Assembly (NCBI GenBank): GCA_946555455.1
Contig: CAMNSU010000003.1
Location: 900-64,899, forward strand
DNA from: an uncultured Clostridia bacterium
Lineage (GTDB): Bacteria > Bacillota > Clostridia > RUG12999
DNA length: 64,000 bases
Direction: 5' to 3'
Shown here: in pieces, positions 32,986 to 47,415 of the stretch
How the letters are laid out: each line of letters starts with the position of its first letter
Position numbering within the stretch: position 1 is the first letter of the stretch
Program-made: the position numbers and the translations under genes
The notes under the pieces: generated by a model
Database searches by the model: none
The model's input: only the letters and a program-made list of their open reading frames with translations
Told to the model about the DNA's origin: nothing

Positions 32986-33017
32986 GCTTCCCGAACCGGA
33001 AATACGGTTCGGGAAGC
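32986..33017 (+). other. intercistronic GC-rich hairpin (CCGAACC/GGTTCGG motif)
   Basis: GCTTCCCGAACCG-GAAATA-CGGTTCGGGAAGC is a 13-bp stem with no U-tract. It sits between the SBP gene and the giant gene. Confidence 0.5.
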
Positions 33018-33041
33018 AATCAGGAAGGGGAGAAAACGGAC

Positions 33042-36000
33042 ATGAAACGACATGCAAAGCGTTTTTGTGGAATACTTTTGCTCATGACAATGCTGCTGGC
33101 AATGATTCCGGCAGGATTTGCCGCCGCAGCAGGAGTTGCTGTGCCAACAGTTGATGTTGCGCCGGGACTCTATCGGGAGACCAAACAGATTTCGCTGTCG
33201 GCAGCGGCAGGTGCAACGATTTATTATTCCACAGACAATAAAATGCCGGACGAGACCTGCACGGAATATACAGGCCCCATCACGGTGAGTGAAACCACAA
33301 ACATTTGTGCCATTGCAGTGGCAGACGGTGTGAAAAGTGACCCTGTCACGTTTACATACATCATCAAAGGCGCGGAGGAACCGATTTTTCAATTTGTGGC
33401 AATGAGCGACATTCACATCGGCGACAGAACAAAAGACGCGCCGCGTATCAAAAAAGCGTTTGACGTGATTCAGTCCATCTTTCCGGAGCCGGACGCGATT
33501 GTTCATGTGGGCGACCAAATCAACGACAACCACGTAGCCCATCCAAATCAGTATCCGGATCGCAGCGCAGACCATCAGATTGTGGTTGATATGCTGCAAA
33601 AAGAACTGCAAGACCGCAGTCTGACAGACAAAACAGATATCAGCATGGTCATGGGCAACCACGATTCAACGGTAAGCAACATGCAGAAATATTATCCGGA
33701 AGATTGGTATCCAACCTCCGGCCCGGGCTACTATCACAAAGTGATTGACGGCTACGATTTTCTGTTTTTGAATACAGAAAATCATTCAGATGCACAAAAA
33801 AATTGGTTGAGTGAACAGTTGCTGGCGATTACCAACAACAAAACAGAGATGAATAAGCCTATTTTTGTGGCGGGGCACCGACCGCTTCCGAATACAGTTT
33901 TGGACGGACAGCAAGCGACGCTCTCCACATATAATGCGATATTGAATGAATATCCGCAAGTAATTGCGTTTTCGGGGCATTCGCATTTGGATATGAATGA
34001 TGAAAAATCCATTCATCAGAAAAACTATACTTCTTTGAATACAGGTTCCATGAGTTATATTGAAATTGACCGTGGTAACAATTTCCAGATGCACACAGAT
34101 AGAGGGCAGATAGTATCCTATGAAATTCCTGTCACGCAGTGCTATTTTGTGGAAGTTTTTGCAGACCGTGTGGAATTTGACCGCGTGGCAGTGAATGCAG
34201 ATAGGGGAGACGCCAAAACAAACGGTTATATTCCGGCGGAGCCGTTCAACAACACCGGCGTATCCATTGGGGAACGCTGGACAGTGGACATGACGGGCGA
34301 CATTAAAAGCAATTTTAGATATACGGCGGAAAAGAGAACAGGCAGCGCGCCGACTTTTGCGGCGGATGCAAAAGTGACGGCGAAAATGGAAGGCGGCAAA
34401 GCGCTGGTGGCATTCTCTCAGGCGGAGGACGTGCAGAAGCTGCGCTACTATGAGATTGCCATGCGCGACGCATCGGGAAACGACGTCAAATCCATGAAGG
34501 TACTGCCGGAACACTATTTCTCTCCGGTACCGCGTACCTTAACCTATGAATTTACGGATATTCCGCAGCTTGGCGGCAGTTATACCTTTAGCGTCCGCGG
34601 CGTGGATACCTTTGGCAACCGCTCGGAAGCGATTGTTACGGAAGAAGCAATAACCGCGCCGAAACTGCCGGGCATTCTGCCGACTTATCTGGTGAACGAA
34701 ACATTCACCACAGAACCGACAGACGCGGCGACACACGCAATTCCCTTTGTGAATTTATGGGGAACGCCTAAAGGTTCGGGAGAAATGCAGTATACAGACG
34801 GTACGGCGAATTTGGTGAACACAGGGACAAACGGAAATTTTGATTTGACAATACCGCTCATGCCAGGAAACGGAGATTTTGAGACAGAACCTATTCCCGA
34901 CAGCACGCCGACAGGACCTTTGATGGTGGAATGGGAATGGAAAGACGCAACGGGCGGCGGAAATGAAATGCAAGCATATTTCCGCAATGCAGCAAAACAA
35001 AACACATTTGTTGTACGTGCTACATCAGGTGGCTATAATTGTCGTTTTATCAATGCAAGTAACGGTTCGGGTAGTAACTGGGGCAGTTCTTCGGCGGCAG
35101 GTTCCAATACTATGACCAAAGTGCGGGTGCTGCTGAATAACACAGGAAGCGCAGCTTATGTAGATGGTGTGTGGCTGAATGGAACACGCATTGTCAATGA
35201 ACGTCAGACGTTTCTCAGAGATGTTGGAACAGGATTTTCACAAATTTGTTTTAGTCATAAAACAAATGGTTCAAACGGACAAACAGCCCTTATCATAGAC
35301 AATTTCAAGGTATGGGTGCCGGCAGCTTCACAAGCAACTGCATTAGCGAAAGAAGACGGCGCGGCGATTACCTTTGACGATATCAAAGGCGCCAACGAAG
35401 CGGCGGATAATATCACAGCAAACTTGGCGCTGGCGGCAAAAACAGAAACAGAAAACGGTTTGATTGTCACAGGCTGGAAATCCAGCAATACGAGTGTCAT
35501 TGCGGCGGACGGAACCGTAACACGTCCCGGATTTGGTGAAACAGATGCGGAAGTGACATTAACGCCGCTGCTGGGCGTACTGGATTTTGAAAACGAAACA
35601 GAAGGCAACTATGCCACGGCAGAAGGAACGCCCATCACTGTAACGGTGAAAACCACCGACACCACCGGCGGCATTCGTCCGGAGGACGTGAACGGCGTTG
35701 GATATTATGTCAACGAAACCTATGACGAGAAACCGACCGACAAGACAACACATTCCATTCCGATGATTGGTACATGGAGCGGCGGCACGGCAGAATGGAC
35801 TGTGGAAGATGGAAAACTGGCGATGGTACCGACGTCAACCGGTTATAATTTCAATATACAAATCCCCTTCATGCCGGGAGAAATGAAAGAAAATGTCGTG
35901 CCGAAGGGCAAGGTATATATTGATTTTAAATGGCAACATGGTGCAAATGAAACACAGACCGACCTTTATGTGCAGGGGTATGCAAGCAATCTTGTGAAGT

Positions 36001-46500: not shown

Positions 46501-47377
46501 CGATATTGTGAATGTATATGAGGGTACCAAAGGCGCAAATGCCGTGAAAACGCCGGTTTCCTATAAAATGTCGGGACGGTACATCTATTTTGGCGCTGCG
46601 CCGATTGAAGAAGAACCCGAGGGACCGGAGGTAACGCCCAAACCGACGCCGACACAAAAACCGAGTTCCAACGTAACCGGTGGAATTTCCGGCGGCGGTG
46701 GCGGCGGCATTGGCAGCGTGAAACCGCAAGGGACGGTAACACTACCCACAGTGACGCCCAAACCAACAGAAACAGGTGATGTAACCCCGCCGCCTACAGT
46801 GACGCCCAATCCGACAGACCAGATAAAAAAGGAATTACAGGGACATTGGGGCGAAGCAGAACTGCTTGAAATGGTGGATAAAGGCATTTTGAAAGGCAGC
46901 GGCGGCACATTGTTGCTGGAAGCTCCTGTCACAAGAGCAGAGTTTATCACCATGCTGGTGCGCGGTTTGGAACTGGAAACAAAACCCTATGCGGGCGGTT
47001 TTGCAGACGTGACGGAAAACGACTGGTTTGCAGAATATATCCAGACGGCTGTAGAGCACGGAATTGCGTCCGGTATGGGGGACGGAATGTTTGCAGGCGA
47101 CAAAGTCATCAGCCGTGAGGAAATGGCAAAAATGCTGGTGAATGCATTTGAAGCGGCAGATGAAGGCAAAACAGCCTTGGGTGAAACAATGGGCTTTGGC
47201 GACAGCGCAGCAATCAGCGATTGGGCGCTGGAATATGTGGAAAAAGCCACAGGCTATGGACTCCTGCAAGGAGATGAAGAAAAACGGTTCCGGCCGCAAA
47301 GCGGCGCACAGCGCGACCAAGCTGCTGTGGCAGTCGGACGTATGCTGGAAAAGTTGAAAACACATAGTGAAAATTAA
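43517..47377 (+). CDS. S-layer-anchored polysaccharide lyase, heparinase II/III-like family, with three C-terminal SLH domains
   Basis: Start at MKNMKGKRIL, preceded by GGAGGT, with a signal peptide. The central region has the heparinase II/III-like pattern (H.HKDDNS..V.A.G..LL.D......GT......ES..AHNT.EIDN..Q). A P/T/G-rich linker at aa 1040-1110 precedes three SLH domains. Confidence 0.7.
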   Translation: MKNMKGKRILTGLLLASLLAAGFPAAAEEMPEAAQPELIQQEETEMVSVSEGEEGGAEQTEDPVLAFEDITSKTNISDETFYGKYDAATDTWTVKPYFNYDKYPEMAAVKQAVMQVTDGDYSAVKEEILQYYRDKRSRQNVPMQGSPSTQAAFFGYAMKKNFYFHPSWPMLGYFNVNGTPDYYSVDVTHQWDSIKTAPDHVVSMILMASEKDGNTAEFESRQGAHPPILEVESNGVVTTLTATKDATVIAGSSDSKNFGKEPTLLVEESATSIGASEPTDSNTKRSHIQFDISDISITDAITRVTLKVYGRNATSDDEKEIFAMKTPNNAWEEDVITFYRLDKTQAYEHMAYSWDKEDSVRYMRPKYQGFRLREELERFETWFPMMLGMYIQGTENNEDYAYTAIRHWVGWLNQSGTNPRGPGYVIPLDHGCRSIALPRAFAWLIMSEHMTPDVWSATLKYMWKSGDIMVTNNYAINDPHNAGVVAARGLHMMNCYYDEFATYDKWLAKTREKIQTVANGSLIDAEGGYGEGSLAYASMTVNNMFGYTTPNTDTNVQDLPFNNRADYDKVEDLAVYLMDMSMPGYKDSQWGDGAEYTTGYTGPFRTVLQEYDNPYLKYAVGEEGGMVPDYTSVLYKNYRRMVMRSGWGENDNYLFTDLDGATVQHTHKDDNSIIVKAYGQYLLSDQLFFSYGTGTVKDYLESTRAHNTIEIDNSSQGTKKRGNVKYWESNDIYDHTTNESLAYQGGKNEKHTRDILYVRPGFWIVGDYVKPTDGDTAQHNYKQHWHMLPDANISLDEGSLTTRTNFGGTANIQIVQANPEDMDAKLNNGYYIGTTADYVTYEQQAAGPVIFNTVLYPEKAGANVEVTAETLPLENVENNGVTAMHINIDNHTDNEFVRADYYLVHDEKQKAVRSFANYETDARSAYVERDALGNLTRLIVQGGTYVKDLDKNVYLFKSKTVVEQIGFGLSYGTVTRDTSANVDMEKLTVYADNTSDIVNVYEGTKGANAVKTPVSYKMSGRYIYFGAAPIEEEPEGPEVTPKPTPTQKPSSNVTGGISGGGGGGIGSVKPQGTVTLPTVTPKPTETGDVTPPPTVTPNPTDQIKKELQGHWGEAELLEMVDKGILKGSGGTLLLEAPVTRAEFITMLVRGLELETKPYAGGFADVTENDWFAEYIQTAVEHGIASGMGDGMFAGDKVISREEMAKMLVNAFEAADEGKTALGETMGFGDSAAISDWALEYVEKATGYGLLQGDEEKRFRPQSGAQRDQAAVAVGRMLEKLKTHSEN

Positions 47378-47383
47378 TATAGG

Positions 47384-47415
47384 CAGAAGCCGAACCCGTC
47401 CGGGTTCGGCTTCTG
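47384..47415 (+). other. intercistronic GC-rich hairpin (GCCGAACCCG / CGGGTTCGGC)
   Basis: CAGAAGCCGAACCCG-TC-CGGGTTCGGCTTCTG is a 15-bp perfect stem with a 2-nt loop and no U-tract. It sits between the lyase and the fucosidase genes. Confidence 0.5.

Follow-up and report, generated by a model that had tools for sequence, protein, structure and literature searches.

Three GC-rich hairpins, here designated H1, H2 and H3, occupy consecutive intercistronic gaps of a predicted glycan-utilisation operon in a 64,000-nucleotide (nt) stretch of DNA from an uncultured Clostridia bacterium known only through metagenome assemblies (contig CAMNSU010000003.1; hereafter referred to as the window). By analogy with other Clostridial operons, and with a probability of roughly 0.65, it is suggested that these hairpins are structural elements of the type involved in selective RNA processing and stabilisation (SRPS) of a polycistronic mRNA. 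What is observed is the existence of the hairpins, their uniqueness, their position, the absence of a U-tract, and the conservation of their pairing and stability despite sequence turnover. H1 separates the gene for a solute-binding protein (SBP) from that of a giant cell-surface enzyme, H2 separates the latter from the gene of an SLH protein, and H3 lies between the genes of a lyase and a fucosidase:

32986 to 33017, plus strand: H1, a perfect 13-bp stem with a loop of 6 nt, GCTTCCCGAACCG-GAAATA-CGGTTCGGGAAGC
40718 to 40749, plus strand: H2, a perfect stem of 10 bp, GGGTTCGCGG-N12-CCGCGAACCC
47384 to 47415, plus strand: H3, a 14-bp stem, CAGAAGCCGAACCC-GTCC-GGGTTCGGCTTCTG

The presence of strong stems of 10-15 bp at these coordinates, as reported by a first-pass annotation of the window, was confirmed by reading of the sequence and by an exhaustive search of the whole 64 kb for perfect stems (minimum length 8 bp, loops of 3-14 nt), in which H1-H3 proved to be the sole stems to combine 10 bp or more with a GC content of 60% or above. 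The minimum free energy fold of H2 comprises 13 pairs with one bulge, GGGTTCGCGG(G.CG)-loop-(CG)TTCCGCGAACCC, while H3 reaches 15 pairs if a closing G-U pair is included (47383 to 47416, (G)CAGAAGCCGAACCC-GTCC-GGGTTCGGCTTCTG(T)). Folding of the gap sequences yields -29.4, -28.4 and -29.8 kcal/mol for H1, H2 and H3, respectively (the H1 energy being about -27 to -29 kcal/mol), with z-scores against dinucleotide shuffles of -5.8, -2.0 and -5.2. G-C pairs close the top and the bottom of all three stems, as in the complete stems classified as Type I in earlier work (PMC10311766). Each hairpin is tightly placed between a stop codon and a very strong Shine-Dalgarno (SD) sequence: H1 follows the SBP stop codon (32967-32969) by 16 nt and ends 5 nt before the SD of the giant gene, GGAAGGGGAG; H2 follows the giant-gene stop codon by 11 nt and ends 19 nt before the SD of the SLH gene, GGGGAGG (40769-40775); and H3 follows the lyase stop codon by 6 nt and ends 5 nt before the SD of the fucosidase gene, again GGGGAGG (47422-47428). 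No Rfam match was obtained in the three gaps or in the operon leader, either at the gathering score or in a scan of the whole window at E <= 1.

Gene calls and Pfam assignments also bear out the placement of the hairpins in the SBP/giant, giant/SLH and lyase/fucosidase gaps, and the hairpins together with a final terminator delimit four modules of the operon:

29283 to 32969, plus strand: module 1, two ABC permeases and the SBP
30405 to 31310, plus strand: second ABC permease
31341 to 32969, plus strand: SBP, 542 aa
33042 to 40706, plus strand: module 2, the giant 2554-aa cell-surface enzyme, between H1 and H2
40786 to 47377, plus strand: module 3, SLH protein and overlapping lyase, between H2 and H3
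40786 to 43494, plus strand: SLH protein
43484 to 47377, plus strand: heparinase II/III-like lyase with CBM96 and SLH domains, overlapping the SLH gene
47438 to 49996, plus strand: module 4, GH29 alpha-L-fucosidase and SGNH esterase
47438 to 48802, plus strand: GH29 alpha-L-fucosidase
48935 to 49996, plus strand: SGNH esterase
50012 to 50059: canonical bidirectional U-tract terminator closing the operon, AAAGCTGAGG...CTCAGCTTTTGTTTTTT

The open reading frame (ORF) of the first permease extends from 29283, its true start probably being near 29400, and the cluster is flanked by a divergent AraC-type regulator identified with Pfam (26552-28828, minus strand). According to Pfam, the giant enzyme combines a metallophosphoesterase domain, aBig_2 repeats, an F5/8-C domain and three SLH domains; its gene holds internal repeats of ~1 kb and ~0.3 kb at 35371-39125 (families D1-D4 and D6), which correspond to seven aBig_2 domains. 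The gaps that carry H1, H2 and H3 measure 72, 79 and 60 nt, and all lie between plus-strand genes; upstream of the fucosidase gene, all three gaps that reach 60 nt have one hairpin each. No hairpin was found in the 18- and 30-nt gaps of module 1, at the overlap of the SLH and lyase genes, or in the 132-nt gap between the fucosidase and esterase genes, and other multi-gene runs in the window, such as that at 19838-24292 on the minus strand, are devoid of such hairpins. The fucosidase-esterase gap contains a promoter-like site at 48870-48898 that is close to consensus (TTGACA-17-TAAAAT, 11/12).

With regard to transcription termination, the 8 nt following each of the three stems include 0-1 T and no T-run follows any of them. 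The tails of H1 (AAUCAGGA) and H2 (AAAACCGG) have 0-1 U each and neither hairpin has a U-rich 3' arm, while H3 is followed by UAAGCAGG. None of the three thus shows the combination of a GC-rich hairpin with an immediate U run that characterizes canonical Rho-independent terminators, and a terminator scan flagged, among H1-H3, only the antisense strand of H1, and this weakly. The 20-35 nt that remain between any of these hairpins and the next start codon contain no promoter-like site. Other operon ends in the window (5954, about 9530, 13530, 56689 and 61507) carry ordinary U-tract terminators like that at 50012-50059, indicating that this organism employs normal terminators and that H1-H3 are something else. 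Since the downstream genes lack a promoter of their own and the hairpins lack a U-tract, RNA polymerase must largely read through H1-H3. The proposal of the first-pass annotation that stems without a T-run are unlikely to be intrinsic terminators therefore holds, and sequence features support the view that H1-H3 are not canonical terminators.

A less stringent version of the termination hypothesis deserves consideration, namely that H1-H3 are leaky internal intrinsic terminators that cause a stepwise decrease of the transcript from 5' to 3'; this would be compatible with a stabilising role, yet it is considered unlikely. In cellulolytic Clostridia, long GC-rich and U-poor stem-loops downstream of SBP genes are leaky internal terminators (Wu et al. 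2022, PMC9045158), and H1 similarly lies directly after an SBP gene. Furthermore, the 3' arm of H3 ends in CUUCUGU, which is paired to an A-rich 5' side and possibly represents a degenerate paired U-rich tract, so that H3 might add weak termination; GGCUUCUG is kept in species A-C (defined below). On the other hand, in the cellulolytic Clostridia a stem-loop from which the U-rich tract had been removed failed to terminate and gave only full-length transcript, the tract, free or paired, being necessary (PMC9045158), and neither H1 nor H2 has one. In addition, the SBP gene here follows the permease genes, so stopping at H1 would not raise SBP levels over those of the permeases, and four large enzyme genes rely on read-through.

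Orthologous loci in uncultured Clostridia were collected by homologue searches with the SBP and the SLH protein, by contig look-ups and by one scan of a genome collection, and their gene order was checked by tblastn. A scan of metagenome contigs with an alignment of the SLH orthologues retrieved only distant SLH-domain proteins (26-48% identity over ~100 residues) and no new orthologous loci. The loci (L numbers) fall into groups that are referred to as species A to E:

Group A, strains of the window's species: L001-L003, L011 and L012, 94-100% SLH-protein identity
Group C: L015, 85% SLH-protein identity
Group B: L004-L007, L014 and L016, 83% SLH-protein identity
Group D: L008, L013, L019 and L020, 76-77% SLH-protein identity
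Group E: L009 and L021, 64-66% SBP and 45% SLH-protein identity

Hairpins without a U-tract, with energies of -20 to -33 kcal/mol, are present in the same gaps in about five related species, although their stem sequences have largely been replaced; every long gap upstream of the fucosidase gene is occupied in species A-D, and most such gaps are in E. The H2 series reads GGGTTCGCGG in the window, GGGTTTGCGGGAGT in L011, GTTTTGCGGGAG in L012, GATTTTGCAGGGACGC in D, and CCTGTAGGGGAC or CCTGTGGGGGC in B and C. The H3 stem CAGAAGCCGAACCC is constant within group A, where it is combined with three loops (GTCC, GAGC and AGGC), and it is represented by CCGGACC:GGUUCGG in C (a G-U intermediate, L015), CCGGACC in B and GAGCCGGGCC in D. 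The H1 series runs from CTTCCCGAACCG in A to CTTCCCGAACTC/GAGTTCGGGAAG in C and TTTCCGGACCC/GGGTCCGGAAA in B, with a 17-bp stem including three G-U pairs in group E, and compensatory changes are seen in the H1 orthologues of L011, L015, L016 and L009. In L009 the giant gene is split in two, and the new gap created in this way also has GC-rich hairpins.

Downstream of H2, a segment of 26 nt (40759-40784, GAATACGCAATTGGGGAGGCTGCGAA) is near-invariant in species A-D, with three substitutions in L015 and one deletion in D, whereas the hairpin upstream of it is wholly replaced. A 4-bp helix, CGCA/TGCG, would place the SD in a loop within this segment, and L015 keeps the helix by means of G-U pairs; the segment may serve the SLH gene as an element for translation initiation. 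As for the end of the operon, a TTGACA...TATAAT sequence similar to the promoter-like site at 48870-48898 is present in L015. Species B and D have no esterase gene; there the fucosidase gene immediately precedes a hairpin, which has a U-run in species B, and convergent genes.

Covariation was assessed with RNAalifold and explicit pair counts on 7 orthologous sequences for each of H2 and H3, using a control in which the pairing partners were slid and 500 shuffles. In H2, 8 of the 11 pairs have changed on both sides and 94.8% of the cells are paired, compared with 36-56% when slid; for H3 these values are 4 of 15 pairs and 95.2%, compared with 27-50%. Not one of the 500 shuffles matched the observed pairing or covariation score for either hairpin. 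Moreover, the sense strand folds as well as or better than the antisense strand in 16 of 20 orthologous hairpins, owing to G-U pairs (for example -33.0 versus -23.5 kcal/mol in L009, and -28.3 versus -15.4 kcal/mol in L008).

Palindromes are, however, also subject to change at the DNA level. It is known that inverted repeats undergo loop flip-flop through template switching, by which a change in one arm can also be transferred to the other. The loops or apical parts of H1 and H2 are inverted between the window (32998-33005 and 40728-40739) and its nearest relative, L011 (2848-2854 and 10517-10528), within flanks that are ~95% identical: the alignment scores are 15 inverted versus 9 direct for H1 and 10 versus 2 for H2, and H2 is also inverted between L011 and L012 (14 versus 8). 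These flips, presumably generated by template switching, indicate that DNA-level palindrome events do occur at H1 and H2.

Several points weigh against an SRPS-type role. Since a compensatory change in a palindrome can be mutational in origin (template switching, quasipalindrome correction), the covariation is a weaker proof of selection on the RNA; in species B it is the antisense strand of H1 and H3 that folds better, the H1 of L011 being a further exception; and the CUUCUGU arm of H3 could, as a weak paired U-rich tract, permit some termination. Taken to its limit, the first of these points leads to the idea that H1-H3 are functionless palindromes, kept perfect by intrastrand template switching and merely tolerated in the gaps, for which the inversions of H1 and H2 demonstrate the required active dynamics. 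This idea is regarded as improbable because hairpins occupy the long operon gaps of species A-D and most of those in E, including the new gap in L009, because their free energies remain in a narrow range despite complete sequence turnover, because the G-U pairs favour the sense strand, and because such palindromes are missing from the other operons of the window. On these same grounds a function of H1-H3 in the mRNA can still be argued.

The stems had also been described as being built on one and the same half-site. This description fits H1 and H3, both of which have CCGAACC in the 5' arm and GGTTCGG in the 3' arm, but not H2, which has only the hexamer GGTTCG, located in the 5' arm and already absent in the nearest relative at 98% protein identity. 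The duplex of H2 is thus flipped relative to the loop, which makes it a different RNA motif from that of H1 and H3. Bare CCGAACC occurs 12 times in the window versus 6.7 expected, 8 of these occurrences being outside the hairpins and all of the latter inside ORFs, while the paired form CGAACC-N-GGTTCG is restricted to H1 and H3 (2 versus 0.05 expected). In post hoc tests against a null of independent and identically distributed (i.i.d.), GC-matched sequence, the probability is 0.0075 for a same-arm 7-mer common to H1 and H3, 0.03 for any pair of H1-H3 sharing a 7-mer and 7.5e-4 for all three sharing a 6-mer, so that significance is nominal. The similarity between H1 and H3 stops at the 7-bp core, and the spacing of the half-sites differs between the two (8 versus 6 nt). 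No further CCGRACC...GGTYCGG hairpin beyond the orthologous positions was detected in the 64-kb window and ~346 kb of related loci (L001-L022; ~410 kb in total).

Species A and B, in which H1 and H3 share their core (CCGGACC in both hairpins of B), had suggested concerted evolution of the two. This candidate was rejected, as the two are uncoupled in species C, where H1 has an A-U and H3 a G-U pair, and the core states of species A-C fit ordinary drift from G-C through G-U to A-U at one pair, which weakens the case for concerted evolution. There is a slim chance that a common factor, such as a specific RNase or a protein that binds RNA, reads the core CCGRACC/GGUYCGG of H1 and H3 and co-ordinates the transporter and lyase modules, with its site co-evolving between species; gene conversion between both hairpins would be an alternative cause of their likeness. 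Similarly slim is the prospect that the core is more generally the site of a sequence-specific trans-acting factor, whether one that recognises the RNA stem (a binding protein or an RNase) or a regulator that binds the DNA palindrome as its operator. The common core in species A and B and the AraC-type regulator that adjoins the operon may be cited in its favour, but the core drifts among close relatives, the spacing is unequal and H2 is without the motif. A dimeric DNA-binding protein with fixed spacing is unlikely, since the spacing differs and the sites lie inside the operon. AraC-type proteins, moreover, typically bind direct repeats at promoters and not palindromes within operons. An operator for the neighbouring AraC-type regulator was accordingly discarded on account of the unequal half-site spacing, the location of the sites deep inside the operon and the unconserved sequence. 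Cleavage of the stem-loops in the Clostridial cip-cel cellulosome operon was shown to be independent of sequence (PMC10311766). The earlier proposal of a sequence-specific regulator site is hence not upheld, in view of the free drift of the sequence, the rapid loss of the H2 hexamer and the spacing.

Scarcely credible is the related proposal that H1-H3 belong to a dispersed REP-like or MITE-like family based on CCGAACC/GGTTCGG and inserted genome-wide in intergenic gaps: the 7-bp core common to both arms of H1 and H3 (chance 0.0075-0.03 under the i.i.d. null) and its persistence as CCGGACC in both hairpins of species B might point to it, but only orthologous copies exist in the window and the ~346 kb of related loci (which do not wholly cover the source genome), the likeness ends at the core, vertical inheritance has left the hairpins in place while they diverged gradually, the H2 sequence of species B and C is unrelated, and the true dispersed repeat of the window looks quite different. 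Overall, it appears that structure and stability, and not the CCGAACC sequence, are under constraint.

The repeat just mentioned is a structured element with copies at 17013-17195 and 28923-29100, whose first 96 nt agree at 96% and which can be aligned over ~180 nt. It includes three hairpins, among them a 13-bp palindrome (ATGGAATATCCGG-ACACGTG-CCGGATATTCCAT), and each copy is situated between divergent genes, the first ahead of a MatE-like gene (17303) and the second ahead of the ABC operon. Rfam yielded no match to it. The element occurs in L001-L003 of species A, whereas blastn detected no copy in any other fetched locus, species B-E included; it might represent a mobile element or else a regulatory leader shared by the two sites. 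Comparison of L001 (1-5445) with the window (24674-29283) revealed that the SBP, giant and SLH genes are 100% identical while the upstream genes differ, consisting of a Cu_amine_oxidN1-domain protein, tRNA_edit and patatin in L001 and of the AraC-type regulator and GH123 in the window. The junction falls at the dispersed repeat, which suggests a rearrangement at this element.

Returning to an SRPS-type role, H1-H3 share its features in that they lie in co-directional promoterless gaps of one transcription unit, place a stable stem 3' of the upstream cistron, and are retained across species while the sequence changes. According to this model, RNA polymerase would pass through H1-H3, an endoribonuclease, probably RNase Y by analogy, would cut the short single-stranded stretch beside each hairpin, and each hairpin would shield the upstream fragment from 3'-to-5' exonucleases. 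In combination with the very strong GGGGAG(G) ribosome-binding site, located within ~20 nt, the hairpin may in addition cap the 5' end of the downstream fragment. RNase III was considered as the cleaving enzyme and rejected, the stems of 10-15 bp being below the required length; this enzyme usually needs roughly two helical turns. The operon would thereby be split into four modules of separately set half-life, and hence of separately set protein ratios, comprising the transporter, the giant enzyme (bordered by H1 and H2), the SLH protein with the lyase (bordered by H2 and H3), and the fucosidase (bordered by H3 and the terminator). For H1-H3 we infer not only read-through but also cleavage, the blocking of exonucleases and differences in stability. 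The first-pass suggestion of structural mRNA elements of the exonuclease-barrier or processing kind is consistent with the fact that position, stability and pairing are kept across species with compensatory changes, the stabiliser function itself being the inferred part. Kept by relatives in position and shape but not in sequence, H1-H3 look like ordinary mRNA-stabilising or processing stem-loops rather than a new sequence motif.

Some additional features of the window and of the related loci were noted. In L004 (species B), the interval that separates the AraC-type regulator from the first permease gene contains two transposase-like genes (HTH_28, then rve; 6503-7923), which suggest the insertion of an IS element; L007 of the same species lacks them. 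In the window, a perfect AT-rich palindrome of 27 bp (11633-11693, AATATACTGCTTGACATATTATACTAT-N7-..., dG -37.5) is found in a 390-nt gap between minus-strand genes and carries a TTGACA/TATACT-like promoter pair on both strands; its weak Rfam matches to miRNA precursors are surely spurious. A sub-threshold Rfam match to the cspA thermoregulator (2609-2846; 39.7 bits versus a gathering score of 78, E about 1e-6) sits in a 711-nt gap that precedes the gene at 3057.

If the proposed role is correct, this operon would be another natural case in which Clostridia divide a long transcript into stability modules by means of plain GC-rich stem-loops. A gap that keeps a hairpin of constant strength while the sequence is replaced and the loop is flipped provides a clear illustration that structure, and not a motif, is constrained. 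For the annotation of uncultured gut Clostridia this implies that intercistronic hairpins without a U-tract should not be called terminators or operon ends, and such hairpins are possible natural parts for the tuning of expression ratios. H1-H3 raise no new question.

Among the known systems, the REP/BIME elements of enterobacteria (malE-malF, hisJ-hisQ) are GC-rich intercistronic palindromes that protect upstream mRNA from 3' exonucleases and that also occur after SBP genes. REPs form a high-copy dispersed family with a conserved consensus that is mobilised by RAYT transposases. H1-H3 resemble these elements in being intercistronic, GC-rich, palindromic and without a U-tract, but differ in that they show neither a consensus nor extra copies in the window and the ~346 kb of related loci and are vertically inherited at fixed positions. 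In the 5' stabilisers of Bacillus (aprE leader, cryIIIA), on the other hand, a 5' stem-loop or a STAB-SD is located in a primary 5' untranslated region. The arrangement of a hairpin closely followed by a very strong SD, at the would-be 5' end of a processed fragment, is similar here, but a 5'-cap role of H1-H3 would depend on a hypothetical cleavage upstream of the hairpin. With the leaky terminators of cellulolytic Clostridia (PMC9045158), H1 has in common that it is long, GC-rich and low in U, lies directly after an SBP gene and falls in the Type IV energy range. Unlike those terminators, H1 is essentially without a U-rich tract, the tract being absent from H2 as well; the SBP gene here stands after and not before the permease genes; and H2 and H3 lie between enzyme genes, so that only H1 has the position downstream of an SBP gene.

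The remaining comparison is with the cip-cel operon of Ruminiclostridium (Clostridium) cellulolyticum, in which intergenic stem-loops mark the places of endonucleolytic processing and the abundance ratio of two neighbouring genes is correlated with the folding energy of the stem-loop between them (Xu et al. 2015, PMC4423207). Such stem-loops confer stability on either end of a processed fragment and serve as signals for cleavage without sequence specificity (Wang et al. 2023, PMC10311766), RNase Y being the suspected enzyme (PMC10311766). The present operon differs in content, encoding an ABC importer, SLH-anchored enzymes, a lyase and a fucosidase in an uncultured Clostridia lineage, and its hairpins have longer stems and greater stability (about -28 to -30 kcal/mol versus the -14 to -24 kcal/mol quoted for cip-cel). 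Both systems, however, have stable and complete GC-capped stem-loops in the short gaps of a long Clostridial polysaccharide-degradation operon with an upstream promoter, and in both the stem-loops stay with their genes across related species as the sequence changes.

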